A stretch of 64,000 nt of DNA from an uncultured virus (IMG/VR IMGVR_UViG_3300023174_000069) (Duplodnaviria; Heunggongvirae; Uroviricota; Caudoviricetes): IMG/VR virus record IMGVR_UViG_3300023174_000069, one strand, 5' to 3'. Within the stretch, counting starts at the first letter, position 1. Each line of letters starts with the position of its first letter. Shown in pieces: positions 23,258 through 43,113 of the stretch. Made by a program: the position numbers and the translations under genes. The notes under the pieces were generated by a model, which saw only the letters and a list, made by a program, of their open reading frames with translations, made no database searches and was not told the origin of the DNA.

Positions 23258-25807
23258 ATGGCTTATATAGGAAACGGAAGAACATTACTAATAGTAGGAA
23301 CTAACGTTCGAGACGATCTAGTTCCTGCATACGATGATGTTACTAAATCTTGGCCAGAAGATGGAGCTTTTGATAAGACTACATTTGAACTTAGTCAAGA
23401 AGTTCCTGGTGGTTATGAAGAAAATGTTTTAGTTCTCAGACAAGAATATAAAAAAGATGTATTAGTATCAAACACCACACTTCTTTCTATTCAACTTGTT
23501 TCTGCAACTCAAATAAAATTGGTTTGTAGTAACGCTTCTTTGGCGGCCGCTCTAAGTGCGATTGAAGAGCCTACGGAAGGCTTCGATGATACACAAACAC
23601 TAACAATATCAGGTTCGTCAAACAGCAACAACAATCAAAAATTTGTACTACAAGATGTTGTGTATAACGGTTCTACCATAGAAATTTTCTTGCAAAGAAT
23701 TGGTAGTGAAACTGCCAGCGCAGGGGAATCTTTAACTGTTGTTTATGGTAGATTAGGATATTGGGAAGTATTAGAAACCGTAACAGACTACTCAATCAGT
23801 GGTGAAGGAAGCAAGTATAACCGACTTATAAATTTAACTAAAGCTCCTCAAATGGAGGATAAAGTATATGTTCTGCACAAAGGAGATGCCACATATAATT
23901 TTGTTCCTTCACCAAATTCTGTTGGACCCGACCAATTAAGTCATAATTTAAGAAACTTTTCGTGTGACAGATATATTGGTGATAATACGTCCACAACTTT
24001 TGTTTTAACATTCACCGGCGAAGACAAGGTAGTTAATTCAAAAGCTCTATTAGTAAGTGTCAATGGTGTTATTTTAGAAGGAAATGACCCTGATGGTGGA
24101 ATATTAGGAGACTGGAAATTAGACACAGAATTAGTCGATGAGAAGCAAACAATTACTTTTACTAATCCTCCTTCCACAAACTCAAAAATAAGAATACTTC
24201 ATTTAGGATTTTCCACAGTTTCACGACGACAAACTATTTCTCCTGGTCAAGTTGGTGCTATTGCTAATGGAACAATCACAGAGTCTAAAATTGCCAATGG
24301 TGCAGTAACATCATCAAAAATATTCGCTAATTCTGTTACTACTAGCAAAATTGCCAATAATCAAGTAACTGGTGAAAAAATGCTATTAGGGTCCGGTGAA
24401 TCTATTCGCTGGTCCACAACCGCAGGACTTGTAAATGTACTAACCGCCGGTGCTGAAGGAAATGTAACTCTTCAATCATCTAATGGTCTTGTAGGCATAA
24501 AAAGCGTAAACGGATCTGTAAATTTTACTGAAACTACCATATTTGATGGTAGTGGAACTAGCACAGAAGGTACAGTTAGTTTAGGTCGATCACAAAATAA
24601 ATTTAAAGATTTGTATTTGTCGGGTACTAGCAACTCTACTGGTCTTTCAGTTCAAGGAACTCCAGGTCAAACATCCACAAGTATTGTAGGAAACGTATCA
24701 ATTACTGGAAATATAAGTCTTACTGGCAGTATCGATGGTGCCGACGTTTCAGATATCAGAAATGAGCTTACTGAATTAAACTTAAAATTAAATGCACTGA
24801 TACCTATTGGAAGTATAATGTTGTCTGCTCGATCTGAGGTTGTTGATTCTCAGTGGATGACTTGCGATGGCTCTGCGGTAAATACTTATACATATCGAGA
24901 GTTACATTCTAAGATTAGTAGTCTTTATGGTGGAACTGCATACCAAGCGGGAGTAACAGATCAACCATCTGCCGCAACTACTTTTAATCTTCCTGATTTG
25001 CAAAGAAGATTTCCTATTGGAAAATCTTCGGCTGATACTATAGGAAACAACGAAGGAATTTCCAATCCTTCACTGAGAACCATTAAACATACACACACCG
25101 GAGCGGCGCATACTCACACCTTTGATCATACACATACAATTCCTGGACACTCTCATACTATTCAAGCAAACAACACACTTGCAATAGGAGCTTCAGGGTC
25201 ACATACGACAGATATTGGACATACTCACGGAGTATTTTCCACTGGAGGTCCTAGTACAAATTTATCACACACACACGAAGTCACTCATAATCATGGAACA
25301 ATAACCAGTGGTAATAATGATGTTGATCACACACACACCTTTTCAGGAACAACGGGCGGGAGCGCCGTTCCTGTAAAAAGATTAGGTGCTGCTAGTGGTG
25401 GATATGGCGTTGTTTCTTATGACACCGGCTCCGGAAATACTATCGGTTCGCACACGCACTCATTCGGTGGAACTACCGCAGGACAAAGTGCAAATCACAA
25501 ACATAGTATAACAATACCTTCTATAACCAGCACATCTGATGGTCCAAATAGTGGAGGAAATTCATTGTCTCATACACACAGCGTTACAATATCCGCATTT
25601 ACAGGAAATTCCATTAGCACAGGTTCTCACACACATTCAGCAGCCAATTTTAGTGGAAACATTGGAAATACAGCAGTAAATGGTGATAATACTATTACAT
25701 CTGGTGCAAGTTCTGTGAATACTACCAGTGCAGCTACATACTCGGAAGTTTCTGGTGACAGTGTTAGTCCTTATATTGTGCTAAATTATATGATAAAGGT
25801 GCTTTAG
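23258..25807 (+). CDS. Tail fibre protein with tail-collar domain and HxH needle
   Basis: MAYIGN start, NGAVTxxKI repeats, collar motif PIGSIM...WMTCDGS...FNLPDLQRRFPIG, 12 HxH motifs and PYIVLNYMIK end. Confidence 0.85.
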   Translation: MAYIGNGRTLLIVGTNVRDDLVPAYDDVTKSWPEDGAFDKTTFELSQEVPGGYEENVLVLRQEYKKDVLVSNTTLLSIQLVSATQIKLVCSNASLAAALSAIEEPTEGFDDTQTLTISGSSNSNNNQKFVLQDVVYNGSTIEIFLQRIGSETASAGESLTVVYGRLGYWEVLETVTDYSISGEGSKYNRLINLTKAPQMEDKVYVLHKGDATYNFVPSPNSVGPDQLSHNLRNFSCDRYIGDNTSTTFVLTFTGEDKVVNSKALLVSVNGVILEGNDPDGGILGDWKLDTELVDEKQTITFTNPPSTNSKIRILHLGFSTVSRRQTISPGQVGAIANGTITESKIANGAVTSSKIFANSVTTSKIANNQVTGEKMLLGSGESIRWSTTAGLVNVLTAGAEGNVTLQSSNGLVGIKSVNGSVNFTETTIFDGSGTSTEGTVSLGRSQNKFKDLYLSGTSNSTGLSVQGTPGQTSTSIVGNVSITGNISLTGSIDGADVSDIRNELTELNLKLNALIPIGSIMLSARSEVVDSQWMTCDGSAVNTYTYRELHSKISSLYGGTAYQAGVTDQPSAATTFNLPDLQRRFPIGKSSADTIGNNEGISNPSLRTIKHTHTGAAHTHTFDHTHTIPGHSHTIQANNTLAIGASGSHTTDIGHTHGVFSTGGPSTNLSHTHEVTHNHGTITSGNNDVDHTHTFSGTTGGSAVPVKRLGAASGGYGVVSYDTGSGNTIGSHTHSFGGTTAGQSANHKHSITIPSITSTSDGPNSGGNSLSHTHSVTISAFTGNSISTGSHTHSAANFSGNIGNTAVNGDNTITSGASSVNTTSAATYSEVSGDSVSPYIVLNYMIKVL

Positions 25808-25808
25808 T

Positions 25809-26801
25809 ATGGGAAAATATTTAGGATCAACTAGCCCAATAGGAATGCTAGAAATTCAGGATTTAACACCAGAAATTGATGGTACTAAAACCACATTTTC
25901 TCTGATATATCCAGCTCCTACTCCATCTTCAATTTTGGTCATATACTCCGGCAATATTTTGCGACCAGTAGGAACATCCAGTGTTCCTTCGGAGTATTCA
26001 TTAGATGCTGGTGGAACTAAGTTAGTATTAAAAGAAGCACCCGTTCAGGGATTCTCACTACACGTTGTTTATTTGGGTCGAGAGCTTACTATACCAGTTT
26101 CTGTCGGTCGTTCGCCACTTTTAGTTCAAGTGGATTGTGTTGATAGCATCGATGAGTTTTCGGTATCTCAAACAACTTTGATTCCTAGTGCGTTAATAGT
26201 ATTTAAAAATGGTGTTCAGCTTAGACATCACAACACACAAGATGGTGTAATAATTAATGAAGGTGACTTTTACATAACTTCTGAAAATAAAATAAAGCTG
26301 ATGTCGTCACCTAGTGTTGGTGACAAGTTGGACTTTTACATATTAGGACTTGAGAGAACAGACTTAGTGACTGTGGATGCCAATTCTATTAGTACCGGAA
26401 AAATACAAGATGGTGCGGTGACTCCTGAAAAGTTAAATATGATTTTTGCTACATATAACCCAGTTATCAGCACGTTCTCTGGAATGAATAGTGTAGTACA
26501 ACACACGTCAATAAAAGAGTATCAGTCTTTAGGAAAGCTAGTTAAACTTCGTCTTAAATTTCAAGTATCACTATCAGGAACAGAAGATAACAAGATACGA
26601 TTTACACTACCAGTAAACAATGACGGTAGCACTTGCATCTCGGGATCTGCTACTATATCTAGTAATACGTCGGTTGAGTCTGGAATAGTCAGGTGGGGTG
26701 CGGTGAATGCGCTGGACATCTATAGACAGTTTGCCGTTAATTATAGCATCAATCAGACATATACTATTGAAGTGTTCATAGAGTATAAAGCTGCTTCCTA
26801 A
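25809..26801 (+). CDS. Fibre-associated structural protein
   Basis: Two DGxxTTF...VFxNG...Y...P beta-domains, DGAVTPEKL repeat and a C-terminal beta-domain. Confidence 0.75.
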   Translation: MGKYLGSTSPIGMLEIQDLTPEIDGTKTTFSLIYPAPTPSSILVIYSGNILRPVGTSSVPSEYSLDAGGTKLVLKEAPVQGFSLHVVYLGRELTIPVSVGRSPLLVQVDCVDSIDEFSVSQTTLIPSALIVFKNGVQLRHHNTQDGVIINEGDFYITSENKIKLMSSPSVGDKLDFYILGLERTDLVTVDANSISTGKIQDGAVTPEKLNMIFATYNPVISTFSGMNSVVQHTSIKEYQSLGKLVKLRLKFQVSLSGTEDNKIRFTLPVNNDGSTCISGSATISSNTSVESGIVRWGAVNALDIYRQFAVNYSINQTYTIEVFIEYKAAS

Positions 26802-26802
26802 T

Positions 26803-26840
26803 AAATCCAAAAAAAAAGTTAATAATTTTGGATTTTTTTT
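26803..26840 (+). terminator. Possible intrinsic terminator (AT-rich stem plus T run)
   Basis: AAATCCAAAA / TTTTGGATTT inverted repeat followed by T's. Confidence 0.4.
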
Positions 26841-26860
26841 CTAGGAGAGATGTTTGCCTG

Positions 26861-26868
26861 TATAAATA
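26861..26868 (+). promoter_or_regulatory. T4-type late promoter (TATAAATA)
   Basis: Exact consensus, intergenic. Confidence 0.75.
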
Positions 26869-27038
26869 AGTGCATAACAAACTGTAATTCATAATAATTT
26901 TACATTATTCAATCTCGACCTGACAATCTTATTTAATGGTTCTTTCAACTGAACCTGTCTTTGCGATGCACCGTGAGTGTTTCGTGACTTATTATTCTAA
27001 CAATTAAAACAAACTTAATTCTTTAAGGGAATACTAAA

Positions 27039-30000
27039 ATGGCCTTAACCAAAATTCGTGGTAATACACAAATTAAAACTGGTTCCATTACCAATGTCGA
27101 GATTGCCTCGAATGCTGGTATTGAACTTTCCAAACTCGCCGAAGGCGCAGAGCTTATTAAACGTGACGGTTCTGTAGCTTTTACAGGTAACGTAGATGCT
27201 GGATCACACAAAGTTGTAAACGTATCTGCTCCAACTGCTGCTATGGATGCGGCTAACAAACAATACGTTGATGACGGGTTAGAGACACTTCGTGCTCAAG
27301 TACAGGATGATCTTGATCCAAGACTTGATGCTATCGAAGGTCGCATGACGACCGCCGAGGGCGATATTGATGCACTTCAATCCGATCTTGCTGCTGAAAT
27401 TGCTCGTGCTCAAGGTGCTGAAGCTGATTTGGCTTCTGATCTTGCTGCTGAAGTTGCTGCTCGTGAAGCTGCCGTTTCCGCAGAAGTTGCTGCTCGTATT
27501 GCTGATGTCGATGCTGAACAAGCTCGTGCTGAAGGTGCTGAAGCTGCTATCGCATCTGATCTCTCAGACGAAGTTGCTCGTGCTACTGCTGCTGAAGCTG
27601 CTATCGCATCTGATCTCTCAGACGAAGTTGCTCGTGCTACTGCTGCTGAAGGGCTTCTTGATGGTCGTGTAACTGACCTTGAGAATGGTCTTTCTGCTGA
27701 AACCCTTGCTCGCCAAAATGCTGATGCTGGACTTGCTGCTGATATTTCGGCTGAAGAGTCTCGTGCAATGGCTGCTGAGGCTGGACTTGCATCTGATCTT
27801 GCAGACGAAGTTGCTGCTCGTGAAGCTGCTGTTTCTGCTGAAGCTGCTGCTCGTGAAGCTGAAGACCTTACTTTCTTGAAGCTCGACGGTTCAAGAGCTA
27901 TGGAAGGCAATCTTTTAGTACCACATTCTTCCATCATAACTGGTAATACGGCTACTCCAGCTCCAGGTGACTACAATCAATATGTTGAAATTATTGAGGG
28001 CTCAGTTAATATTAATGGAGTTACATCATCTGGAATAACTAGCACAAATTTGATTCCTGGACTCATGTCTATGACGTCAGTAGATGGCGACGGAGCTCCA
28101 ATTGGTTTTGTGATCGTATCGGGAGAAAATGTCAAATGGTCTGACGGCGATGGACAACCAATGATGCCCTTTGATCCTGACAATTTAACCACAAAAGCAT
28201 ACGTTGATCAAGAAGTTGCTGGTGCTGTAGCTGACAGTGATGCTGTAGCTGCTGATCTTGCTGCTGAGGTTGCTCGTGCTACTGCTGCTGAGGCTGCTCT
28301 CGCTGCTGATCTTGCTGCTGAAGAAGCCGCTCGTGTTGCAGACGTTGATGCTGAGGAAGCTGCTCGTATTGCTGCTGTAAGTGCTGAAGCATCTGCTCGT
28401 ATTGCTGCTGATGCTGCTCTTCAAGCTGAGATTGATGCAGAAGAGTTGGCTCGTGCTGCTGCTGTAAGTGCAGAAGAGTCAAGAGCTATGGCTGCTGAAG
28501 CTGATCTTGCTGCTGATCTTGCTGCTGAAGAAGCTGCTCGTATCGCCGACGTTGATGCTGAGGAAGCGAGAGCTATGGCTGCTGAAGCTGATCTTGCTGC
28601 TGATCTTGCTGCTGAAGTTTCAGCTCGTATTGCAGACGTAAACGCAGAAGAGTCAAGAGCTATGGCTGCTGAAGCTGATTTGGCTGCTGATCTTGCAGTT
28701 GAAGTTGCTGCTCGTGAAGCTGCTGATATTGTCCTTCAAGGAAATATTGATGCTGAGGAAGCTGCTCGTATCGCCGGTGATGCTGCTACACTTTCGAGTG
28801 CTAATGGCTACACAGATGCCGAGATTGCTGCTCTTGTAAACAGTGCTCCTGCCGTACTTGATACTCTCAAGGAACTCAGTGATGCTCTTGCTGGAGATGC
28901 AAACTTTGCAACTACTGTTGCTGGACAAATTGGTGCTGTAGCTGCTGATCTTGATGCCGAAGAAGTTCGTGCTCTCGCTGCTGAAGCTGCTCTTCAAGCA
29001 GAAATTGATGCTGAAGAAGTTGCTCGTGCTGCTGCTGATGTTGTTCTTCAAGGAAATATTGATGCTGAAGAAGTTCGTGCATTAGCTGCCGAAGCTGTTC
29101 TTCAGTCCAATATTGATGCAGAGCAAACTCGTGCCGAAGCTGCTGAAGCTGGACTTGCATCCGATCTTGCTGCTGAAGTTTCAGCTCGTATTGCAGACGT
29201 AAACGCAGAAGAGTCTCGTGCTCTTGCTGCTGAAGCTGCTATCGCTGCTGATCTTGCTGCTGAAGAAGCTGCTCGTATTGCAGATGTAAATGCAGAAGAA
29301 GTTCGTGCTCTTGCTGCTGAAGCAGATTTGGCTGCTGATCTTGCTGCTGAAGAAGCCGCTCGTGTTGCAGACGTTGATGCGGAAGAGACTCGTGCTCTTG
29401 CTGCTGAGGCTGCTCTTGGAGTGGACATCGCTGCTGAGGAAGCTGCTCGTATTGCAGATGTTGATGCCGAGCAAGCTCGTGCAGAAGCCGCAGAAGCTGC
29501 TATCGCTGCTGATCTTGCAGTTGAAGTTGCTGCTCGTATCGCCGCAGTAAGTGCAGAAGCATCTGCTCGTATTGCTGCTGATGCTGCTCTTCAAGCTGAG
29601 ATTGATGCGGAAGAAGTTGCTCGTGCTGCTGCTGTAAGTGCTGAGGCAACTGCTCGTATAGCTGGTGATGCTGATCTTGCTGCTGATCTTGCTGCTGAGG
29701 AAGCTGCTCGTATCGCTGCTGACAGTGCGCTTGACCTTCGTGTGGGATCTCTTGAAGATCGCATGGATGAAGCTCAGATTGATATTGCTGCACTTGAGAC
29801 TTCTGTGCTCTACGTTGCAAACGTTATCACTCGTGAGTCGCCAAGTGGTTCAATCAACGGTAGTAATGCTGTGTTCTCACTTGCATACACTCCTGTGTCG
29901 AACAGTGAGCAAGTATTCTTGAACGGACTCTTGCAAGAGCCTGGAGTTGGAAACGACTACTCTATTTCTGGTGGAACAATTACCTTTGCGGTAGCCCCAG

Positions 30001-30041
30001 TAAGTGGAGATCGTATTCGTGTTAGTTATCTTAAAGCATAA
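27039..30041 (+). CDS. Long Ala/Glu/Asp-rich coiled-coil fibre protein (whisker/fibritin analogue?)
   Basis: About 700 aa of AEEAARIAD-type repeats, an APxxLDTLxELxxAL fibre motif and a C-terminal EQVFLNG beta-domain. Codon bias (gct/ctt/cgt) resembles gp23. Confidence 0.8.
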   Translation: MALTKIRGNTQIKTGSITNVEIASNAGIELSKLAEGAELIKRDGSVAFTGNVDAGSHKVVNVSAPTAAMDAANKQYVDDGLETLRAQVQDDLDPRLDAIEGRMTTAEGDIDALQSDLAAEIARAQGAEADLASDLAAEVAAREAAVSAEVAARIADVDAEQARAEGAEAAIASDLSDEVARATAAEAAIASDLSDEVARATAAEGLLDGRVTDLENGLSAETLARQNADAGLAADISAEESRAMAAEAGLASDLADEVAAREAAVSAEAAAREAEDLTFLKLDGSRAMEGNLLVPHSSIITGNTATPAPGDYNQYVEIIEGSVNINGVTSSGITSTNLIPGLMSMTSVDGDGAPIGFVIVSGENVKWSDGDGQPMMPFDPDNLTTKAYVDQEVAGAVADSDAVAADLAAEVARATAAEAALAADLAAEEAARVADVDAEEAARIAAVSAEASARIAADAALQAEIDAEELARAAAVSAEESRAMAAEADLAADLAAEEAARIADVDAEEARAMAAEADLAADLAAEVSARIADVNAEESRAMAAEADLAADLAVEVAAREAADIVLQGNIDAEEAARIAGDAATLSSANGYTDAEIAALVNSAPAVLDTLKELSDALAGDANFATTVAGQIGAVAADLDAEEVRALAAEAALQAEIDAEEVARAAADVVLQGNIDAEEVRALAAEAVLQSNIDAEQTRAEAAEAGLASDLAAEVSARIADVNAEESRALAAEAAIAADLAAEEAARIADVNAEEVRALAAEADLAADLAAEEAARVADVDAEETRALAAEAALGVDIAAEEAARIADVDAEQARAEAAEAAIAADLAVEVAARIAAVSAEASARIAADAALQAEIDAEEVARAAAVSAEATARIAGDADLAADLAAEEAARIAADSALDLRVGSLEDRMDEAQIDIAALETSVLYVANVITRESPSGSINGSNAVFSLAYTPVSNSEQVFLNGLLQEPGVGNDYSISGGTITFAVAPVSGDRIRVSYLKA
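27370..29730 (+). repeat. Degenerate coding repeats (54-nt/18-aa and 33-nt/11-aa units)
   Basis: For example gctgaagctgctatcgcatctgatctctcagacgaagttgctcgtgctactgct occurs in tandem near 27537 and 27591, and a roughly 100-nt block recurs near 28365 and 29535. Confidence 0.85.
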
Positions 30042-30066
30042 TTAACTAACTTCCCATAGTGATATA

Positions 30067-30090: not shown

Positions 30091-30173
30091 AATTCTATTC
30101 ATATAATTTGGCGAAGAATAGAATCTTATAGATTAATATCACAAAAGATTTTTAATTAACGGAATAACGAACA

Positions 30174-31850
30174 ATGTCAACTCAGATTCGTGGTAATAAA
30201 CAAATTAAAAATATCACCATTCAAAACGAACAGCTTGCGAATGGTACGATAGAACTCAACAAACTCAAAGAAGGATCAGAACTATTAAAAAGAGATGGTT
30301 CTGTAGTTGCAACCGGAAATTTTGATCTCGGTTCTCATCAAATTAAAAATGTTGCGGCACCAGTAGATGCTACCGACGCAGTTCGCAAAGCTGATCTTGA
30401 TGCAGCCACTGCCGGACATGTTGTAACTAGAGAAATTCCATCAGGGTCCATAAACGGTTCTAACACACAATTTACTTTGTCTAATACTCCAAATATTGGA
30501 AGTGAGCAAGTATTTTTGAACGGTGCTTTACTCAACACAGGAGCAAACTCCGATTATGTAATTGATGGAACAACACTTACATTTACTATTGCACCTCAAA
30601 CTGGTGACGTAATTCTTGTAAACTATATTAGTGATGCTATTATAGTTAGTTTGGATGTAACTAGCACACTCAATCAATTCAATTCTCGATTAACAACCGC
30701 CGAGAGTGAATTATTCACAGTTCAAGGCGATGTTGTTGGTGCTCAAACAAACATTAGCAATCTTCAAAGTAGAGTTACTACTGCTGAAGCTGATATAGTT
30801 GCTCTTGAAGGTAATGTATCTGCTGCTCAAGGTAATATATCCACACTTCAATCTGGTGTTTCTACACTACAATCTGGACTTTCTTCAGAAATAACTGCAC
30901 GACAAAATGCTGTTAGTTCATTAAGCTCCAATATTACCACACTTCAAAGTGCAAATACAACTCTTGGAAATAGAGTTACTGCTGTAGAAGGTGATATTAG
31001 TGCTCTTGAAAGTGCTGACGAAGCATTTGATCTTCGTATTGGTGTGATTGAAGATGGACTTCAAGCTGAAACATCTGCAAGAACAAGTGCTGATAGTGCT
31101 CTTAGTTCTCGTGTTACTACTCTTGAAAATGCTCCAGCTCCTGTAACTTCGTATAACAATCTTACTGATAAGCCTAGCTTGTTTAGTGGTTCATATACAG
31201 ATCTTTCTAACAAACCTACTTTGTTTGATGGTGCGTATGCAAGTCTTTCTGGCAAGCCTAGCTTGTTTAGTGGCTCATATGACGATCTTTCTAACAAACC
31301 AACTATAGCATTAGCTGCTCACCAATGGTCTGCTAATCACACAATAGCTGATGGAACAAGATATTTGATTGGTGACATCGTATACGACAACGGAAACATT
31401 TACGTTGCAAATTACGAAAATGAAAGTATGCCAACTTCAAGTGCATTGTATTGGACAAATCTTGGTCCTGGTAAACGAATCAACATTGATGGAAGAGATA
31501 TACAAAACATTCCATACTCAAGTTTGACTGGTAAGCCGTCTCTATTCAGTGGTTCGTATAACGATCTTACTAACAAGCCATCTTTGTTTGATGGTGCGTA
31601 TGCAAGTCTCTCTGGCAAACCAACAATATATACACCAGTCAAAGAAGTTCCTTCTGGTAGTGTTAATGGTACAAACGTAACATTTACAATATCAAATGCA
31701 CCTGCTGTAGCTGGTACTGAACAAGTGTTCTTGAACGGATTGTTGCAGTTTTCTGGTGTTAGTGATGACTATACAATTTCGGGTGGTACCATCACTTTTA
31801 ATACCGCACCTGAAACTGGTTGGAAACTTGTTGTATATTATTTCGTTTAA
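30174..31850 (+). CDS. Fibre protein with coiled coil, SGSYxDLxNKP repeats and a CBM5/12-like module
   Basis: N-terminus paralogous to the 27039 protein; two EQVFLNG domains; W...YLIGDIVYDNGNIYVA...W motif. Confidence 0.8.
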   Translation: MSTQIRGNKQIKNITIQNEQLANGTIELNKLKEGSELLKRDGSVVATGNFDLGSHQIKNVAAPVDATDAVRKADLDAATAGHVVTREIPSGSINGSNTQFTLSNTPNIGSEQVFLNGALLNTGANSDYVIDGTTLTFTIAPQTGDVILVNYISDAIIVSLDVTSTLNQFNSRLTTAESELFTVQGDVVGAQTNISNLQSRVTTAEADIVALEGNVSAAQGNISTLQSGVSTLQSGLSSEITARQNAVSSLSSNITTLQSANTTLGNRVTAVEGDISALESADEAFDLRIGVIEDGLQAETSARTSADSALSSRVTTLENAPAPVTSYNNLTDKPSLFSGSYTDLSNKPTLFDGAYASLSGKPSLFSGSYDDLSNKPTIALAAHQWSANHTIADGTRYLIGDIVYDNGNIYVANYENESMPTSSALYWTNLGPGKRINIDGRDIQNIPYSSLTGKPSLFSGSYNDLTNKPSLFDGAYASLSGKPTIYTPVKEVPSGSVNGTNVTFTISNAPAVAGTEQVFLNGLLQFSGVSDDYTISGGTITFNTAPETGWKLVVYYFV

Positions 31851-31890: not shown

Positions 31891-34800
31891 ATGTCAAAGA
31901 CAGAAGTTTCTGGAAAGCAAATTAAAGACGGATCTATTGAACTTGTAGATTTGTCTGCAACAGTATCAAATGATATTAACACATTAAAGAGTGATGTTTC
32001 AACTCTTCAGAGTGATGTTTCAACTATTCAAGGTGATGTTGCAACACTGCAAACAGACGTTGCGTCAAATGGATCAAGTGTTTCTGGAATTGATGGACGA
32101 CTTGGTTTACTTGAAGCAGATTCTACGACAAAAAACTACGTTGATGCACAAATTTCCAATTTAATAAATGGATCTCCGGCTGCGTTAAACACTCTTAATG
32201 AGCTTGCAACTGCATTAGGAAATGATGCTAATTTTTCTGCTACTGTTACTGGACAAATTAGTGATATTTCTGCTGATGTTGCATCGTTAGATGGTAGAGT
32301 TTCTTCAGTTGAAAGTGATGTATCAACTCTTCAATCAGATGTTGCTGGAAAAGCCAGTGCATCATCGCTTGCAACAGTTGCTACAAGCGGTGCTTATGCA
32401 GACCTTACTGGTAAACCATCATTGTTTAGTGGAGCATATACTGACCTTACTGGAAAGCCCTCGCTTGCAACAGTTGCTACTAGCGGTGCTTACTCAGACT
32501 TGAGTGGAACACCAAGTCTTGCGGCGGTTGCTACAAGTGGTTCGTACAATGATCTTTCTGATAAGCCTTCTTTCTCAAGCAATCTCGACGGTCTTACTGA
32601 TGTAACAATCACAACGCCAGCTAACGGACAAGTTCTTCAGTATAACGGAACTGCATGGATAAATGGAGCTGCTCCATCAACATTCAGTGGATCATACAAT
32701 GACCTTTCTGATAAGCCGTCGTTGTTCAGTGGATCTTATGCAGATCTTACTGGCAAGCCAACTTTGTTTGATGGTGCATATGCGAGTCTTACTGGGAAGC
32801 CTTCGTTGTTCAGTGGTTCTTATACAGATTTGACTAATAAACCATCTTTGTTCAGTGGTTCATATAACGATCTTACTAACAAACCAACAATACCAGCTTC
32901 ACTTGATGATTTGAGTGATGTTGTTATTACTTCTGCATCTAAAGGACAATTTGTTGTTCACAACGGAACATCATTTGTAAATTCAAGCACAATAGAGGCT
33001 TCTAGTGCTGCTGTTAAACCTTTGATTATAAAAGGTGCTGCATCTCAAAGTGCAAACTTGTTTGAAGCGCAAAACAGTTCGGGCACTTCTCTGCTGTCCA
33101 TCAGTAATAGTGGTACAATAACATCAGGAATGTTCTCAACATATGCTGGAGGAGGACTTGGTGTTACAGGAATTGGAAGTGGTAATTCATCGTACAGTGC
33201 ACAAGGTGTTTATTTAAATGCTTCAGTAAGCGCATACGGCGTCATGGACATGGTAGGAAACAATGGTGGATTCATTGACTTTGCCGGAACAAACGAAGAT
33301 TTTCACGGAAGACTTTTGTATGATCGTGGAAGTCACGCATATTACTTCTACACAGGAGCAAATGCAACTGCAAAAGTTTATATAGACCGAGACAACTATG
33401 GAACTCTTTGGGTTGGCCCTGGTTCTGCATCATCTAAAGGTGTTGTTGTTCAGGCGGCTGCGTCACAAACAGCAAACTTGTTTGAAGCACAAAACAGTTC
33501 CGGTACAGTATTGTTCTCTGTTGATAAAGACGGTAGCATGGCTGCTGGAACTGTGCCTGTAGCTCGTGTATCTGGTCTTGCAACTGTAGCAACAAGTGGT
33601 TCGTATGCTGATCTCAGCAACAAGCCAACAATTCCTAGTTTAACTGGTTATGCAACAGAAGTATATGTTGATAATAAAGTTTCTGCTCTTGTTGCTAGTG
33701 CTCCTGCCGCTCTTGATACACTCAATGAGCTTGCGGCTGCATTAGGAAACGATGCAAGTTTTTCAACAACAATTACCAATTCGCTTGCTGCAAAGGCAAA
33801 CACATCGTCACTTGCAACTGTAGCAACAAGTGGTTCGTATGCTGACCTCAGTAACAAACCAACATTGTCTAGCTTTACTACTTTGACTTCTCCAGCATCT
33901 GGTCAGTTTTTGAAGTATAACGGCACTGCTTGGGTAAACTCTGCTGTAGCATATAGCGATGTTACTGGAACGCCTACTCTTGCAACTGTAGCAACAAGTG
34001 GTTCGTATGCTGACCTCAGTAACAAACCAACCATACCAGGCACATCTGATGGAAATGCTTTGGGTGCAACCACGATAACAACAACCTCTGCTTCAACTAA
34101 AGCGTTGATTGTAAAAGGTGCTGCATCTCAATCAGCAAGTTTGCTTGAAGTACAAAACAGTTCTTCTCAAATATTGAGCAAAGTTGCATCTGATGGATCT
34201 GTGTCAATGTATGACACATCTGGAGCAAATGGCTTTACAATATCGAATAATAGTGGTAGTGAAAAGCACACATTACCTTCTCAGAAAGCATTTCAAATAA
34301 CACAACCTGGAGCATACGGAGTTGCCACTACGTTTAGTATTGGTGCAGATGATGCTATTGGTGAAAACGGAAAATGGCAGATTCGATACGGAACCTCCGG
34401 CTCGTCGGGAAGTGCTGTAAACTTTAGACCAGGATATATAGACTCTAATCGTTTTGGTGGAGTCGGAATCATGGTTCCTGACGATATGTATGTGAAAGCA
34501 AGATTGCACATTCACAATATACCGTTTCCAACACAAGGTAATTATGGTGATTTTACTGGACTTTTAATTCAAAATTATGACAATCAATCTGCAAACGCAT
34601 TTGAGCTTCAAGACCAAAGTAACAATAAATTGTTTGCGATCAACAAACAAGGACAAGTTCAAGCTGTAAGTGCTTCGACTAAGGCTCTTGTTGTTAAGGC
34701 CGCAGCATCACAAACAGCAAATGTAATTGAAGCTCAAGATAGTTCTGGTAATGTTATATTTGCTGTAACTCCATCGAATTTGCACACAACATTCAATGGT

Positions 34801-35166
34801 ATTACAAGCAAAGAGACAAATGCTACCGTTACAACAACTAATGCAACTGAAACAACATTGTTTAGCTTAACTCTTGCTGACAATACCACATATAACCTTG
34901 ATGTTATGGTTTGTGCTCGTTTATCAAGCACAACTGCTAAAGGAATGTATGGTAGATCAAGATTGATGGTTTACAGAAACAACGCCGGTGTTGCTACAAT
35001 CGCTGCTGATTTTGGCGGTCAATTAGAAGAGCTTGATACATACGGAACTTCTGGATACGACTATGTTGTAGACGTTTCTGGTAACGATGTGCGAGTTCGA
35101 GTTACTGGTGCTGCAAGCGAAACTGTTAAGTGGGCTGCTAATGTTAAATACGTTTCAGTAAGCTAA
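31891..35166 (+). CDS. Long tail fibre-like protein
   Basis: Two (A/S)PAAL(D/N)TLNELAxALGND motifs, many LATVATSGSYADLxNKP repeats, LDGLTDVTIT...GQVLQYNG repeats and KGAASQSANLFE repeats. Confidence 0.85.
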   Translation: MSKTEVSGKQIKDGSIELVDLSATVSNDINTLKSDVSTLQSDVSTIQGDVATLQTDVASNGSSVSGIDGRLGLLEADSTTKNYVDAQISNLINGSPAALNTLNELATALGNDANFSATVTGQISDISADVASLDGRVSSVESDVSTLQSDVAGKASASSLATVATSGAYADLTGKPSLFSGAYTDLTGKPSLATVATSGAYSDLSGTPSLAAVATSGSYNDLSDKPSFSSNLDGLTDVTITTPANGQVLQYNGTAWINGAAPSTFSGSYNDLSDKPSLFSGSYADLTGKPTLFDGAYASLTGKPSLFSGSYTDLTNKPSLFSGSYNDLTNKPTIPASLDDLSDVVITSASKGQFVVHNGTSFVNSSTIEASSAAVKPLIIKGAASQSANLFEAQNSSGTSLLSISNSGTITSGMFSTYAGGGLGVTGIGSGNSSYSAQGVYLNASVSAYGVMDMVGNNGGFIDFAGTNEDFHGRLLYDRGSHAYYFYTGANATAKVYIDRDNYGTLWVGPGSASSKGVVVQAAASQTANLFEAQNSSGTVLFSVDKDGSMAAGTVPVARVSGLATVATSGSYADLSNKPTIPSLTGYATEVYVDNKVSALVASAPAALDTLNELAAALGNDASFSTTITNSLAAKANTSSLATVATSGSYADLSNKPTLSSFTTLTSPASGQFLKYNGTAWVNSAVAYSDVTGTPTLATVATSGSYADLSNKPTIPGTSDGNALGATTITTTSASTKALIVKGAASQSASLLEVQNSSSQILSKVASDGSVSMYDTSGANGFTISNNSGSEKHTLPSQKAFQITQPGAYGVATTFSIGADDAIGENGKWQIRYGTSGSSGSAVNFRPGYIDSNRFGGVGIMVPDDMYVKARLHIHNIPFPTQGNYGDFTGLLIQNYDNQSANAFELQDQSNNKLFAINKQGQVQAVSASTKALVVKAAASQTANVIEAQDSSGNVIFAVTPSNLHTTFNGITSKETNATVTTTNATETTLFSLTLADNTTYNLDVMVCARLSSTTAKGMYGRSRLMVYRNNAGVATIAADFGGQLEELDTYGTSGYDYVVDVSGNDVRVRVTGAASETVKWAANVKYVSVS
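33577..34031 (+). repeat. Three dispersed 53-bp repeats within a fibre gene
   Basis: cttgcaactgtagcaacaagtggttcgtatgctgacctcagtaacaaaccaac is identical at 33811-33863 and 33979-34031, and near-identical from 33577. Confidence 0.85.
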
Positions 35167-35194: not shown

Positions 35195-36115
35195 ATGCCA
35201 AGACTTACTGGAATATATTCAGGAGCATCAACAAGTGATGAGTTATCATCAAATGCATACATTTCTGTCGTCAGTTCGGGATTATCCTCTGGTACCATAA
35301 TAATGTATGTTGCAGATATTTTACCTGCAGGATGGTTGTTGTGTGACGGCTCTGCTGTAAGTAGAACAACATATTCTGCACTATTTTCTGCTATTGGTAC
35401 AACATACGGTACTGGTAATGGTTCAACAACTTTCAATTTACCAAACATGACAGGTAAGATGCCAATAGGTGTCAAATCCGGTGGTAATGTTGGTTCATTA
35501 GGTGCAACTGGTGGCAGTTTTAATCATGTGCATCAAATGGGTGCTCACACACATGCTCAGTCTCACACTCATACCATAGCACATACACACACAATATCAC
35601 ATTCACACACCATTGATCACTATCATGCTGTTGGAACTCATCAGCATCCTTGCGATCATACACATTCTATTCCAGCTCACTATCATAATGTATCTGGATC
35701 TGCGGCTTTTGGAAATCATACTCACACAACTGCAATTTCATCTGGATCTTCAGGTAGTGGCAGAGTTAGAACAAATGCAACGCCCACATCCGGTTCTGCT
35801 GGTACAACCGCCGCTACCGGATGGAGCTATAGCACATCAATAGCTGTTGGACCAAATAGCGCTGGTGATAGTGCTATGAACAGTTCAGCTATGATAAATC
35901 AAGAAGCTGGTACAACTAGCGGAAGTAGTGGAAGTGCAATAGGAAATACCAGCACATATTCTGGTAGTACAGATTCGGTTAGTGCAAATACTGGATCATC
36001 AAGTGTTGCCAGCAGTAGTGCTTATGCATCAAATACTGGTGAAATGACAACAACAGAAAATGTTCTCGCCGCAAATCCTCCATTTTTAACAGTAAACTTT
36101 ATCATAAAGACATAA
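35195..36115 (+). CDS. Tail-collar domain protein with His-rich needle (paralogue 1)
   Basis: PAGWLLCDGSAVSRTTYSALFSAIGTTYG...FNLPNM; 10 HxH motifs; NPPFLTVNFIIK. Confidence 0.88.
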   Translation: MPRLTGIYSGASTSDELSSNAYISVVSSGLSSGTIIMYVADILPAGWLLCDGSAVSRTTYSALFSAIGTTYGTGNGSTTFNLPNMTGKMPIGVKSGGNVGSLGATGGSFNHVHQMGAHTHAQSHTHTIAHTHTISHSHTIDHYHAVGTHQHPCDHTHSIPAHYHNVSGSAAFGNHTHTTAISSGSSGSGRVRTNATPTSGSAGTTAATGWSYSTSIAVGPNSAGDSAMNSSAMINQEAGTTSGSSGSAIGNTSTYSGSTDSVSANTGSSSVASSSAYASNTGEMTTTENVLAANPPFLTVNFIIKT

Positions 36116-36118
36116 GCC

Positions 36119-37096
36119 ATGCCATATATTACAGGACTTAAATCTTCAGGTGCTGCGAATTCGGTTGCAACGAACGCAGAAGTTTCAGGACTTTCTGGTG
36201 GTGCATCATCATTACCCGTTGGTGCGGTAGTACCTTTTGTGGGAACATCAATGCCAACTAATATGTTGCTTTGTGATGGGTCTGCGGTGTCTCGTTCAAC
36301 TTATTCATCACTATTTACAATTATAGGAACAACATTTGGTTCTGGAAATGGATCAACAACTTTTAATGTACCAGATTTTAGAACTGGTACTAAAATTCCT
36401 GTTGGTAAAGACTCATCAGTAACAGACATCAATGCTTTAGGCAAATCTGGTGGATCCTTCAATCACACTCACACATCCACTGCTCATGCACATAGTTTTA
36501 CACACTCTCATGATATGGGAAGTCACACTCACTCATATGATCATTCTCACACCATGAGCAATCATACTCATACAACAGATCATTATCATTCATTAGGAAA
36601 TCATTATCATACATGGGCCGCTCATGGACACGCTCAAAATAATGTATCAATAACATCAAATAGCAATAGCGCACACACACATTCATATACTGCATGTAAT
36701 ACAACTGGCTCAACGGCTGGAGGATCGGCTGGTCCTAGACAATCTGCAAGTAGCGCATCAGGTTATTATAACACATCTACGGACAGTCAAACTGTTGGAG
36801 CTTCTGTTACTATAGGTGCTTCCGGAACAACAAATATGTCAGTGAACGCTCTTGCTTCTGGTTCTCCTAAATGGAATGACGGCTCTACAAATAGAGATCG
36901 TGTAACCTCTACTAGCAATACTTCTGGTACACCTTCAACAAATAGTACAGATACTGCAACGGGAAGCACGGCAGTACCATCAAATAACAACACCGACTCA
37001 TATACAGGAAATACTGACTCCGGTGGTGGATCTTTAACAACCGATTCAGCAAATCCACCATATCTAACCGTTAATTTTATAATTCAGGCGCAATAA
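36119..37096 (+). CDS. Tail-collar domain protein with His-rich needle (paralogue 2)
   Basis: PVGAVVPF...LLCDGSAVSRSTYSSLFTIIGTTFG...FNVPDFR; 10 HxH motifs; NPPYLTVNFIIQ. Confidence 0.88.
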   Translation: MPYITGLKSSGAANSVATNAEVSGLSGGASSLPVGAVVPFVGTSMPTNMLLCDGSAVSRSTYSSLFTIIGTTFGSGNGSTTFNVPDFRTGTKIPVGKDSSVTDINALGKSGGSFNHTHTSTAHAHSFTHSHDMGSHTHSYDHSHTMSNHTHTTDHYHSLGNHYHTWAAHGHAQNNVSITSNSNSAHTHSYTACNTTGSTAGGSAGPRQSASSASGYYNTSTDSQTVGASVTIGASGTTNMSVNALASGSPKWNDGSTNRDRVTSTSNTSGTPSTNSTDTATGSTAVPSNNNTDSYTGNTDSGGGSLTTDSANPPYLTVNFIIQAQ

Positions 37097-37100
37097 TTAT

Positions 37101-38048
37101 ATGGCAAAGATTAAAGGGATCAAAACAAAAACTGGTGACAATACATCTGCCGTAGCAAAAACAACTGCTGATGGTGGAGCTCCTGCACAAGTATCATCTG
37201 GTGTTATTACTATGCTTGCTCAAGCAACTGTTCCATCAGGATGGTTTTTGTGTGATGGAACAGCATATTCACAAACAACCTATGCTTCTTTATATGCTGT
37301 AATAGGCAGCGCATACAACACTCATCCAACTTTAGGTGCTCCTGCCGCAGGAAATTTTAGAGTTCCTGATCTCAGAGATGTATTTCCTTTGGCAATGAAT
37401 CCATCTGGAGCAACAGGAACAACAGCTTTAGGTACATATAGCACAACTGGATGGAATCATACACATACAGTTCCTGCACACTCGCACACATTAGCAAATC
37501 ACACACATACTTTAGGAAATCACACTCATAGTGTGCCTGCTCATAGTCACACACTAAACAGTCATACTCATTCTGTACCTTCACACGCTCATGCCATATA
37601 TGGTCATATTCATTATTTTGCAGGACATCAGCACTCAGGAACAGTCAACGTTACCGCAAGTCATTACCATCAAATGGGTGTAACAAGCGATTCAACTACT
37701 GGGTCGTCTGACAACCGAGTTTCTAACACAGCCACAGGAACTATGACATCTAATTCTACAGGCGCTTTTACTCTAGGAATAGGAGGAACCATTGGTAACG
37801 CAAATAATGCCGATAGTGGTCATAATACAGATTGGTATTCGTATGCTGAGACTCAAAATGTCACAGCTACTTCAGGAACTACTGGCACACCAAGTGCAAA
37901 CTCAGGAACTTCAGCAGTATTTAACTCAGGAACACCAAGTGCTGCTTCTGGTGTGCCATCATCCAATACAACAAGCAGTGATGGTGCTGCTGCAACAGGC
38001 TCGGCGAATCCACCATATTTTGGAGTTCATTTCATAATCAAAGCATAA
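37101..38048 (+). CDS. Tail-collar domain protein with His-rich needle (paralogue 3)
   Basis: PSGWFLCDG...YASLYAVIG...FRVPDLR; 10 HxH motifs; NPPYFGVHFIIK. Confidence 0.88.
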   Translation: MAKIKGIKTKTGDNTSAVAKTTADGGAPAQVSSGVITMLAQATVPSGWFLCDGTAYSQTTYASLYAVIGSAYNTHPTLGAPAAGNFRVPDLRDVFPLAMNPSGATGTTALGTYSTTGWNHTHTVPAHSHTLANHTHTLGNHTHSVPAHSHTLNSHTHSVPSHAHAIYGHIHYFAGHQHSGTVNVTASHYHQMGVTSDSTTGSSDNRVSNTATGTMTSNSTGAFTLGIGGTIGNANNADSGHNTDWYSYAETQNVTATSGTTGTPSANSGTSAVFNSGTPSAASGVPSSNTTSSDGAAATGSANPPYFGVHFIIKA

Positions 38049-38082
38049 TTCACCAGAATGTTCATATTAAAAGGTTATAAAC

Positions 38083-38565
38083 ATGACACATCACTTTTAC
38101 AGCATACTAAAACAGTACGCACAGTCTGTGTCAGACAGCTTTACCCTTGGTGGACTATTTAAAAGTGCTCTTTTGCTTGTAGCTGCTTTTTTAGCTCCGA
38201 TAGCAACCGTCATTTTTGCTGTGATGTTCTTGATATTTGTGGATCTTATTACAGGCATGTTGGCTTCTATTAAGGAAAAACAAACTATAACAAGCTCTGC
38301 TATGTCTCGAACAATAGCAAAAACGTTTGTATATTGCACGACAATAATTGTAACGCACGTTGTTCATAAATATCTGTTAGTGGGCTTTGATTTTCCCGTA
38401 GAAAGTGTTGTTTCTGGTTTCATAGCTCTTACCGAGATGAAATCAATTTTGGAAAACATGAACAGAATTAGCAATCAATCTGTTCTGAAAGATTTAATAT
38501 TAATATTTTCTAACGAGAGGGAGCGACGACTGCCACCAAAAAAGACCAAAAAAGATGATCAATAA
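38083..38565 (+). CDS. Holin (phage holin family 4-like)
   Basis: Hydrophobic helices with DLITGM...ITSSAM...K...EMKSILEN signature and a basic C-terminus. Confidence 0.75.
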   Translation: MTHHFYSILKQYAQSVSDSFTLGGLFKSALLLVAAFLAPIATVIFAVMFLIFVDLITGMLASIKEKQTITSSAMSRTIAKTFVYCTTIIVTHVVHKYLLVGFDFPVESVVSGFIALTEMKSILENMNRISNQSVLKDLILIFSNERERRLPPKKTKKDDQ

Positions 38566-38650
38566 CTTGCTTTTCTTATAAGGTCGTTATGTTGAGACAC
38601 TTATGGTGAATTATATAATAAGAACATAAGCACTAGCAGGTGCGAGTGTA

Positions 38651-38658
38651 AATAAATA
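38651..38658 (+). promoter_or_regulatory. T4-type late promoter (AATAAATA)
   Basis: Intergenic, upstream of the 38686 fibre. Confidence 0.55.
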
Positions 38659-38685
38659 CTTAATAGGATATTTGGATTTACACTC

Positions 38686-41600
38686 ATGACGCTAATAAAC
38701 ACCACAAAACAAAATATTGATATAGAAAGGCTCAAAGTTGAGTTGGAGTCTTTAGGCATTTTGGAAAATGGTGTAGCTACTTTTAAGATTATTGGAATAA
38801 CACCAACAGTTACTGGCACTTCGGTTGATGTTGAAAGATTAAATCAAACCCCATTAACACAAGCTGATATTGAGTTAATAGTTTCTACAGTAAATCTTCA
38901 CGTTGACGAAAAGCGACGTAGAGTTATTGTTAATGAAATTCCTAATTTTTCTAACGAGGCGTCTAATAAAAAGTTTGTTGATGAGACTATTGCGGGATTG
39001 GTCAATAGTGCGCCAGGAACACTCGATACACTAAACGAATTGGCTCAAGCATTGGGAAATAATGCTAACTTTGCCACAAATATTACTAATCAAATTAGTA
39101 ATGTACAAACCACACTCAGTAGTAGATTAGATACAGCAGAAAGTGACATATCTAATTTACAAGATTCTGATGTACTCTTAGGACAACAAATAGCCGGGCT
39201 AGACAACAGAATATCTGATATTGAAGCCGAACCTCCTTATAGAAATATAAGTGAGCACGATGATGTTACTATAACCACACCTACTTCTGGGCAAGTATTA
39301 AAATATAATGGTTCTAAATGGGTTAATTTACAGGACAATACATTTACTGGAAGTTATAACGATCTTACTAATTCACCATTTATACCAACTACATTAAACG
39401 ATTTAACTGATGTTGCTTTACAAAGCAGCACTATAGGTCAAGTATTAACATATGATGGAACAAATTGGCAAAATCAAAATTTGCCAACTATTGGTATAGT
39501 ATCTTTAAATTCTTCTCAATCATCAACACAATCACTGGTAGTAGGTAACACAGGAAATGATTTCAATATTTCTACGGCCGATGGGGGTGTTCACACCTTT
39601 AATATTCCTGACGCCGCTTATACTAAAAGAGGATTAGTAACAACATCTAATCAAACATTTACAGGAACTAAAACATTTCAATCAAGTCTAGCAAGTAGCG
39701 TAGGACTTATTGTTCGTGGCGCTGCGGCACAAACAGCAAATCTTTTAGAAGTGCAAACCAACTCTTTTACTCCAGTATTAATTATTAATTCCCAAGGAAG
39801 TATTTCTGTAGGATCATGGAACGCCGATACAATACAAATTTCTGTAGGTGGCACTGGCGCTAGTTCTGCTCAAAGTGCAATAAATAATTTAACACAAGTT
39901 AGTTCCGCTAGTGATGAATATGTTTTAACCAAAGATACTACTACTGGAAATGCCATATGGAAAGCCACAGCCAGTAGAGTTACTGCAATTAACTCTCTGA
40001 CTTCTGGTGCTCAAACTATTGCTACAGGAACTACAGGATCCGACTTCAACGTTTCTAGTTCTGGCTCCACACACACATTAAATTTACCAGACGCTAGTGC
40101 TACTGCAAGAGGTGTTATAACCATTGGTGCACAGACCATAACCGGAACAAAGACGATACAAACTTCCTCTGCAACTAATAAAGCATTAATATTAAAAGAA
40201 ACGACATCTCAATCAGCTAATATGTTTGAGATTCAAGACAGTTCTGGAACACCATTAACTGTTATAAACTCTTCTGGGTATATAGGTATTCCAAGCGGAG
40301 GTGGTGCTGCATCTCCGGGGTTATATTTTACCGCAAACACAAACATGGGGTTGTATAGAAAGGCCTTCAACGTAATGGGGTTTGTCTCAAACGGGCAGCC
40401 AGCATTAATGATAGATGGACAATCTGGTGTTGGACGGCTAGGAGTTGGTGATACCGGAACTGTTGTATCAAGACTACAATTAATTGATGATAATCTTGTA
40501 GCAACAGCAGGTATGACGTTTGGTACTAACTCAAGCACATACGTTCAACTATATCGTTCTGCAAACAACATTTTAACATTAAATGGTGGATTTAATATTG
40601 TTAATGCTGGTGCTGGAAACAAAGCTCTTGTTGTTAAGAGTGCAGTGGGACAATCAGCTAATATGTTTGAGATTCAAGACAGTTCTGGAACACCAGTGCT
40701 GTCGATTGATAGTGTCGGTAGTTTATCAGTCGGTACAGTGCCGGCGGCTCGTGTTACTGGTCTTGCAACAGTAGCAACAAGTGGTGTTTATTCAGACTTG
40801 ACTGGTAAACCATCTCTTGCAACAGTTGCTACAAGTGGTTCATATAATGATCTTACAAACAAACCAGCAATACCTAGTTTAACTGGCTATGCAACAGAAG
40901 CATATGTTGATAGCAAAGTTTCTGTTGCGCCTTCTGGAAGTGTTATGGCATTTGCAGGTAGTTCTGCGCCGGGAGGATGGTTGTTGTGTAATGGAGCATC
41001 TGTAAATACCTACACATATAGTCAACTTCATGCAGTTATAAGCAATACTTATGGAGGTTCTGCATATCAAGCAGGAACGACCGATCAAATAGGCGCCGCT
41101 ACTACGTTTACACTACCAGATTTAAGAAGCCGTGCTGTTGTAGGCATGGGCAGCACAATAAATAATACTTTGGGTGGTAATGATGGTGTAGCAGAAGGTT
41201 CAAGAAGTCTCACACACTCGCACAACACAACAATACCAGCTCATTATCACTCGATGGGAACTGGTGCTACACTGAATATTACTAGCTCTGGATCTGGCAC
41301 AACAGGAATTGAATCAGGTGGTCATACACACTCAGTATCAGGAACTACAGGCAACGATTCGCCAGATCACAATCACTCGGGATCTACGGGTTGGCAGTCC
41401 GCAGACCACGGTCACTATGTAAGTGGTACAACATATACTGATGGATTGCACAATCATTTAATGCCAACATCCCGAGGTTCTGCCACAGGCGGAACTGGAA
41501 AGGTTGACAAAAACAACGGAACCACAGACAGCAACACAGGAACTGTTGATACAGGATCATCTTCCAGTGAGCATAGTCACGGCTTTGCGGTGTGGAGTGG

Positions 41601-41862: not shown

Positions 41863-41871
41863 GATAGGAAT

Positions 41872-43113
41872 ATGGCAACAAACACACAATCTTTTGTATG
41901 TCGAGAAAAACCCAACAAAGTTGACTTACGAACGTATGTGTTGGCTAATAGTCCTAGTCCAAACACTGAGCAAGTGTTTTTAAATGGAGTTTTGCAGAAT
42001 TTTGGGGTAGATAATGATTATACCATAGCAGACAAAACCATAGTATTTAATGCTTCAACACAAATGGAAGAAGCAGATGTTATTTTAGTAAATTATATTA
42101 TCGATTCTTATACACCACCAGCTCCTGATATTGTTCCTAGTGGAGCATCTTTGGAAGGTAGAAAAAATTTAATTCATTGGTGTTTGCGAAGACTTGGTGC
42201 ACCCGTAATTGATATTAATTTGGATGAAGATCAAATTGAAGATCGTATTGATGAAGCACTTATGTATTTTAGAGACTATCACTTTGATGGTGTTGAAAGA
42301 GCATATTTACATTATCAAATTACTGCATCATCTATAGAATTAGAAAGCCCATTTACCGACAATCTCGAAAGAGGAACTGTTTTAACTGGAGCAACGAGTG
42401 GTGCTACAGCATCAGTATTTGATAAAAGTCTTGACGGAAAAATTATCAGAATAAAACATTTAACTGATAATAGATTGCGAAAAGGAGAAACAGTAAAAAT
42501 TGGTGATACTACTAATCTCATAGAGATTTTAAACACAGACGCCGCAGTATTTTTAGGAGATTGCGATAACAAATACATTAATGTGGGTAAAAAAGCACTA
42601 GCTATCACTAATATTATTCCACAAGAATCATCTACGATTGGTGGAAACTTAGGTGGTATGTTTGACTTTCAGTATCAGTTCGCACTTAACAATATGTTTA
42701 ATTTAGCCTCGACTGATTTGGTAACCTACGATTTATATCAACGATATATAACGATGTGGGAATTTATGTTTCGTGGTGCAAAGGGCATACGCTTCAATAG
42801 AAAAACAGATCGTGTTTACTTAGACGTTGAAGATTTTTTAGTAGGAAAATGGATAATACTAGAAGCATGGGTAGCACTAGATCCTTCCATATATCTTGAG
42901 ATTTATTCTGACGAGTTTGTTAGAGAGTATGCGTACAATCTTATTAAGCTACAGTGGGGAACTAATCTTAAAAAGTTCTCGGGTGTTGCGCTACCTGGAG
43001 GTGTTACATTAAATGGACAGCAGATTTATGATGAAGCCAAAGCCGATTTAGAAATCTTGCGAGAGCGAGTGCGTAAAGAGTTTGAGTTGCCACCAGACTT
43101 TTTTGTCGGGTAG
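41872..43113 (+). CDS. gp13: Neck protein gp13 with an extra N-terminal beta-domain
   Basis: CLRRLGAPVIDINLDEDQIEDRIDEAL; KLQWGTNLKKFSGVALPGGVTLNGQQIYDEA. Confidence 0.95.
   Translation: MATNTQSFVCREKPNKVDLRTYVLANSPSPNTEQVFLNGVLQNFGVDNDYTIADKTIVFNASTQMEEADVILVNYIIDSYTPPAPDIVPSGASLEGRKNLIHWCLRRLGAPVIDINLDEDQIEDRIDEALMYFRDYHFDGVERAYLHYQITASSIELESPFTDNLERGTVLTGATSGATASVFDKSLDGKIIRIKHLTDNRLRKGETVKIGDTTNLIEILNTDAAVFLGDCDNKYINVGKKALAITNIIPQESSTIGGNLGGMFDFQYQFALNNMFNLASTDLVTYDLYQRYITMWEFMFRGAKGIRFNRKTDRVYLDVEDFLVGKWIILEAWVALDPSIYLEIYSDEFVREYAYNLIKLQWGTNLKKFSGVALPGGVTLNGQQIYDEAKADLEILRERVRKEFELPPDFFVG

Follow-up and report, generated by a model that had tools for sequence, protein, structure and literature searches.

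XD2/XD3 domains, known from T4 gp10 and from TSP4 and TSP2 of CBA120, are described as modules on flexible linkers that form trimeric docking surfaces for a partner that is itself a trimer (PMC8825819); in these systems they are carried by the baseplate or by the N-termini of tailspikes. In Klebsiella podophages, the docking of an N-terminal peptide by a branching domain is established: in the KP32 pair gp37/gp38, one fibre carries the socket and the next a short N-terminal peptide, and an anchor domain alone is described as tying this two-member chain to the virion (PMC13352976). The branched long tail fibres of RaK2/phiK64-1 are reported to form a fibre tree through many XD domains with one partner each, with enzymatic spikes anchored at the baseplate (PMC10253068). 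At the neck, gp13 carries the fibres of the T4 collar/whiskers, its domain III (residues 190-239) being described as binding 12 fibritin trimers, one per subunit (PMC12929629, PMC12929587). In the neck fibres of cyanophage A-1(L) (gp5, gp82-gp81-gp80), three neck subunits hold each fibre trimer, the neck is a 15-mer with five fibres, and the members of a bead chain are reported to join head to tail via N-terminal elements (PMC10966104). Here, we analysed 64,000 nucleotides of an uncultured virus of the Caudoviricetes (IMG/VR record IMGVR_UViG_3300023174_000069), hereafter the window, which comprises a block of virion genes from an uncultured T4-like phage. A module with the XD2/XD3 fold is fused in this window to the N-terminus of the head-tail adaptor gp13 and recurs in neighbouring fibre proteins (named here by the start position of their genes; all features lie on the + strand). 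Its presence is probably explained by plug-and-socket docking, in which the gp13 copy would root a fibre chain at the neck; this reading is based on the repeat, its fold, the conserved fusion, the loss of gp13 domain III and the gene order of sockets and plugs. The docking principle is already known; the new element would be a socket built into the neck adaptor. We found no description of such a domain fused to gp13 or to any other neck adaptor in the main text of open-licence papers and bioRxiv preprints.

An earlier note on this DNA had pointed to a repeated module of about 65-70 residues, and this repeat is real. Its four close copies, at the places given by the note, lie at the C-terminus of the 27039 fibre (29820-30038), at two places in the 30174 fibre (30417-30635 and 31629-31847) and in gp13 (41887-42096), with pairwise identities ranging from 26/65 to 41/71 (40-58%) and 19 invariant columns. 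When 940 six-frame segments of the window were scored with a profile built solely from 394 copies in outside proteins, these four reached 61-105 bits and the best unrelated segment 6.7. Two diverged copies in the 25809 protein (25845-26084 and 26133-26342) are also supported (16.6 and 16.3 bits, vs 5.2 for the best of 200 shuffles); one in the 23258 collar-domain fibre (23969-24202) was detected at 11.3 bits but is only marginal, the best shuffle reaching 8.3. With the same profile, the VrlC and 38686 proteins scored within the shuffle range.

The AlphaFold2 model of the module (predicted local distance difference test, pLDDT, 94.9) is a beta jelly-roll of about 60-70 residues, with the first and last strands adjacent and antiparallel, superposable on the XD2 domain of CBA120 TSP4. 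The latter is its best match in the PDB (7rfv 187-250; Z 8.4, root mean square deviation 1.6 over 61 aligned residues, rank 1 of 48,161), the next ranks of that search (Z 5.5-7.9) being taken by fibre and adaptor domains of podophages and by a number of neck proteins; it also ranks first in Foldseek (E 0.011). The gp13 copy matched the XD2-type fold with a Z of 6.7, and sequence identity between the module and the XD domains of T4 gp10 and CBA120 is about 20%. At the sequence level, the module matched 9k4a (E 5e-7), a K1 depolymerase that contains it twice. Foldseek also aligned it with a baseplate cup chain of KP1 (9f4b_FA, template modelling (TM) score 0.73), presumably a gp10 homologue, and one relative (P0211) has two copies joined to the Pfam domain Gp10_C. 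The family comprises 11,287 protein clusters at E up to 0.001; in its best 150 representatives, 105 end in a copy, 9 begin with one and many contain tandem arrays. Given the fold match, the sequence match to 9k4a and the size of the family, the domain is not new: it has the fold of the T4 gp10-type XD2/XD3 branching domain, and this described fold, with its described branching role, had been missed by the earlier note. The Pfam version searched includes no model specific to this family, and the scan of the window proteins gave none for the module. The N-terminal domain of T7 gp17 (PF03906) had no Pfam match in these proteins and resembled the module in fold only at Z 4.8, with weak summed matches in a few relatives. 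Matches to protein G and cellulosome proteins (E 0.04 or worse) were taken as chance. A 2393-residue flagellin-type protein (P0121) has 24 stretches matching the module profile, putative copies that may be real or reflect repeat bias.

The gp13 gene (41872-43113) encodes 413 residues, composed of the socket domain, a linker and a helical core with a swing domain homologous to those of T4 gp13. It is a true gp13: the core aligns with T4 gp13 from T4 residue 8 on (E 8e-26; Z 15), the protein matches phrog_211 (E 2e-36), and the gene sits before gp14, gp15 and the terminase gene. Since the core match starts at T4 residue 8, the N-terminal extension is absent from T4 gp13, as the earlier note had stated. 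The module itself is present at residues 6-75, although the PSGxxNGxN loop quoted for it has been lost in this copy and is retained in some relatives. In the structure model, it forms an independent domain ahead of the first helix, and the linker to the core (42097-42156) is poorly conserved and varies from 15 to 22 residues across 87 homologues. In the gp13 profile, T4 residues 188 and 232 are matched by the adjacent positions 328 and 329; the alignment thus passes straight over T4 189-231, the fibritin dock, and leaves domain III without a counterpart. Fibritin (wac) itself left a single sign among the window proteins scanned, a weak coiled-coil match of 30174 to phrog_1056 (E 1.7e-4).

Among the best 120 of 4,482 gp13 homologues (42-63% identical), 87 are full-length proteins with the fusion (including that of the window), one is truncated with the fusion, five are fragments and 27 are unfused. 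In a tree of the gp13 core, the 87 fused proteins make up a single clade (support 0.976) from which unfused proteins are absent. The fusion was absent from the cultured phages of the collection, in which the 30 best matches all begin at residue 70 or later, the closest being only 33-37% identical; longer gp13 fusions were found in 0 of 7,999 candidates, which is weak evidence. In a tree of the module (100 rows and 82 columns, leaving out nine diverged 25809-like rows and one mislabelled row), the first socket of 30174-type fibres joins the gp13 copies (99/94), whose own monophyly is weaker (89/53).

The module has also joined neck proteins separately in other phages, judging from their sequences. 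In L124, it is inserted inside the gp13 swing domain and falls outside the N-terminal group on the module tree; a relative of this locus (L209, 80% identity in the best segment) lacks the insert. The insertion falls in a small beta-barrel region whose counterpart in the window (42322-42573, gp13 residues 151-234) matches the T4 baseplate chain 5iv5_BJ (766-847, Z 6.9). Further cases came from a domain scan of 140 of the 150 best representatives: in P0224 and P0249, four copies precede an SU10-type adaptor domain, and in P0261, copies follow a head-tail joining domain. In a protein atlas, a cluster of 324 residues, 71% of it with Phage_connect_1 (PF05135), could be aligned with the gp13 module (TM 0.81) and hints at one more connector fusion, with a match below the level at which the tool names a family.

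We modelled three copies of gp13 residues 1-80 with three copies of residues 1-87 of the 27039 fibre, whose gene lies upstream (27039-30041). The complex scored 0.90 and the best of three controls 0.00. Of 157 solved complexes, 116 pass the score threshold, as do 2 of 215 mismatched pairs; these rates apply only roughly here because we used our own alignments and a six-chain job. The runs shared at least 92% of their contacts, and the partner had a pLDDT of 95. In this model, the gp13 socket trimer binds a trimer of the first 13 residues of 27039, hereafter plug A (27039-27077), through gp13 residues 37-43, 47-49, 60, 62-64 and 68-70, with contacts including N38-I6, N38-Q11 and D69-R7. The interface residues N38, G39, L41, Q42, N43 and D49 are each at least 94% conserved in the 87 homologues, N38, G39, L41 and D49 being invariant; mean conservation is 0.75 at the interface vs 0.63 elsewhere (p 0.034, core positions not being separated). 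The modelled plug face would thus be the most conserved surface of the gp13 copy. The proposal of the earlier note that gp13 recruits fibres instead of fibritin is therefore plausible, domain III being unmatched and the complex scoring far above its controls.

The starts of the fibres 27039, 30174 and 31891 share related plugs of the form T-x-I/V-x-G-(x)-x-Q-I. Residues I6, R7, G8, Q11 and I12 of plug A are invariant across 29 aligned relatives, and plug A' of the 30174 fibre (30174-30212) has the same core, I-R-G-N-x-Q-I. A scan with the N-terminus of 27039 detected 43 loci in phages from 42 kb to 336 kb, in which a frequent order is a small module-bearing gene, a plug fibre with a terminal module and a second plug fibre. 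With a plug pattern fixed from the three plugs of the window, a plug start was found in 38 of 50 genes that follow a C-terminal module vs 19 of 571 others, in a first locus set that had been partly chosen by the plug itself. When 62 metagenome loci were selected by the module alone, the counts were 28 of 61 vs 11 of 371, and the 33 misses include both further plug-like starts and plainly unrelated genes. The rule extends to the cultured Bacillus phage G, in which gp359 ends in a module and the next protein, gp360, has a plug-like start. It may serve for reading who docks on whom in a family of more than 11,000 clusters. In G034 (L205 5471-11667), five consecutive genes each encode a plug and then a module, a tandem suggestive of a daisy chain of interchangeable tips.

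Sockets of the clade that precede an arginine plug read G-D (7 rows) and those that precede a glutamate or serine plug read W-K (8 rows), which is only a hint since the rows come from two orthologous groups. At the corresponding position, opposite plug R7, gp13 has an acidic residue in 86 of the 87 homologues. A two-by-two test of socket aspartate against plug arginine (p 0.056) included spurious gene pairs and was not used. No solved chain has plug positions 1-9 as its best-matching stretch.

In the mechanism that we propose, three XD2/XD3-type jelly-roll sockets would trimerise and grip, with their free face, the N-terminal plug of about 13 residues of a trimeric fibre; fibres that begin with a plug, and in many cases finish with a socket, could then join in series. 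The ancestor of the fused clade may have fused one socket to the N-terminus of gp13 via a flexible linker, and the ring of twelve gp13 subunits would present at most four trimeric sockets, each the root of one fibre chain. In the likeliest wiring, the gp13 socket would hold the 27039 fibre, a rod-like protein of 1000 residues of which about 700 are in Ala/Glu-rich stretches, and which, if a coiled coil at 1.5 Å per residue, would span roughly 100 nm. The socket at its tip would receive the plug of the 30174 fibre (30174-31850, 558 residues), and the C-terminal socket of the latter, with G-W-K replacing G-D, that of the 31891 fibre (31891-35166, 1091 residues). This last fibre starts with plug B (T-E-V-S-G-K-Q-I), has no socket and would end the chain, and the first socket of 30174 would be a spare branch point. 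If present on virions, such chains may serve in host capture or in fibre stowage.

Compared with the systems described above, one XD domain here is placed on the neck dodecamer and others at fibre C-termini. The likeness to KP32 is one of architecture; here, the socket belongs to a core protein of the neck, and the chain may run to three members or more. RaK2/phiK64-1 differ by their enzymatic spikes at the baseplate, and family scans of the window fibres detected no depolymerase family. Unlike in the T4 collar, where each gp13 subunit binds its own trimer, three gp13 subunits would share one fibre in the arrangement predicted here. A-1(L) is the closest working analogue; none of its proteins appeared among our fold or sequence matches, in searches that included no direct test aimed at them. 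Branched fibre systems have so far been described at the tail end, and a neck socket would move them to the head-tail junction. The arrangement of four fibres on twelve subunits would be unusual and, if true, visible by plain electron microscopy. It is also possible, though we hold it only tentatively, that each of four three-subunit sockets roots a branched fibre tree through a short plug code, that phages arrived at this design more than once (in N-terminal and internal gp13 fusions, in SU10-type adaptors and in head-tail joining proteins) and that the G-D vs G-W-K difference helps to set the order of assembly.

The slot from VrlC to gp13 is fully covered in five related contigs bearing the fusion (G004, G005, G006, G009 and G010). 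The plug A protein is present in all five, and a free adaptor socket precedes plug A in none. All three fibres are found in G005, G006 and G010. The earlier note had named gp13 fusions in phages lacking these fibres as an outcome that would refute its idea, and this outcome was observed in the other two contigs, G004 and G009 (both fragments), which have the fusion and plug A but no close fibre copy in the slot; their 25809 homologue has only the first module, without the N-G/G-D face, and no 30174 homologue is present there. For comparison, we considered five T4-like genomes, at least 90% complete, with an unfused gp13. Three of them (G014, G034 and G055) have close copies, carried by a fibre cassette at another location in which a separate gene with a module precedes the first plug fibre. 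G015 and G032 gave neither a close copy nor a match to the plug A profile, but in the slot of G032, next to a homologue of 25809, one protein starts like a plug (R-I-R-G-x-x-Q-I).

Several points weigh against a chain rooted at the neck. The loci are related and partly fragments, so that the gene-order counts are not independent, and the Z of 8.4 is close to the level that the search tool calls common. The complex may have passed because of its likeness to solved complexes of XD trimers (T4 gp10 with gp11/gp12), and close cousins of the true partner also pass; the model therefore indicates plausibility and does not single out 27039 as the cognate fibre. The plug-like start of G032 implies that such plugs can exist without a neck socket, and L124 holds the gp13 insertion and a free adaptor together. 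Since the gp13 copy has the first socket of 30174, and not the adaptors, as its sister, the capture of a free adaptor gene by gp13 was rejected. Finally, 25809 immediately precedes 27039, and its second module keeps N-G and G-D (the binding-face motif is lost in the first), making it a rival socket for plug A that fits the gene-order rule. The wiring could then differ, with 27039 hanging from the baseplate via this second module and gp13 taking 30174 or a fibre encoded elsewhere. Both 23258 and 25809 come after the baseplate genes, a slot that holds gp9-12 in T4, and such a wiring also agrees with the core shared by plugs A and A' and with the sister grouping of the gp13 copy and the first socket of 30174. 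We nevertheless consider it unlikely, because plug A and the fusion persist in G004 and G009 without a second-module face or a 30174 homologue, and because the plug fibre of G014 has a separate adaptor elsewhere despite the presence of a 25809 homologue.

The evidence favours plug-and-socket docking over the homotypic docking put forward in the earlier note, in which the gp13 module would bind a fibre module. A role of the module as a docking unit, as supposed in that note, is supported, but its modelled partner is the start of a fibre, and this plug occupies the conserved face in the model. Docking between modules would recall CBA120, where XD2 of TSP2 is needed for TSP4 binding and has been modelled on XD2 of TSP4 (PMC8825819), and both podophage adaptor domains and fibre N-terminal domains are among our fold matches. 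However, fusions occur without close fibre copies in two of the five slot-covering contigs and fibre copies are mostly C-terminal, and module-to-module docking is accordingly disfavoured, to the point of being very improbable. The gp13 copy might also be unoccupied, serving to decorate or stabilise the virion by packing on the capsid or tail, with all fibres at the baseplate. Similar folds on necks without known fibres are indeed among the fold matches, namely the DT57C/T5 neck and the P74-26 collar, the latter described as Ig domains (PMC12407722), yet conservation on the surface of the copy peaks at the modelled plug face, with an acidic residue opposite R7 in nearly all homologues, which makes an idle domain improbable. 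Least credible of all is a module that acts mainly in trimerisation, as a foldon-like cap, or in weak adhesion, with a plug that is simply where a fibre repeat begins. Its usual C-terminal position, weak summed matches to CBM_X2 and DUF4183 in relatives, and the resemblance of plug residues 10 onward to internal repeats of the P-SCSP1u fibre are in line with this idea, which leaves unexplained the socket-then-plug gene order, the fusion to a 12-mer and the modelled interface; moreover, TSP4 XD trimers are described as loosely packed, with little added stability (PMC8825819).

The gene order of the window is gp5, gp25, gp6, a gp7-like and a gp8-like gene, a split VrlC-like pair and nine fibre-like genes with a holin gene among them, followed by gp13, gp14, gp15, the terminase and the sheath genes. 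The proteins 23258 and 25809 start with M-x-(x)-Y-(I/L)-G, a motif kept in relatives that may correspond to plugs of a baseplate-rooted chain. Three consecutive short collar-domain proteins (35195-38048) start with M-x-(K/R/Y)-(I/L)-x-G-(I/L), possibly a further plug class, and G032 has comparable starts in the same slot. The N-terminus of the 38686 protein (38686-38940), for which a protein atlas search gave no usable family, resembles by eye the start of a 227-residue adaptor of L124 and those of other slot proteins, and is likely a separate virion anchor. The VrlC-like gene (15138-22417) is split into open reading frames of 1341 residues, with a Lys-rich tail at its end, and 1083 residues; its counterpart in G006 is a single frame of 2962 residues, and the VrlC-like proteins of G005 and G006 carry the module, whereas those of the window do not. 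The holin gene (Phage_holin_4_1, 38083-38565) is kept near gp13 across relatives. After the sheath gene, two similar adjacent genes (49253-50502) encode tail-tube-like proteins, judging from their translations.

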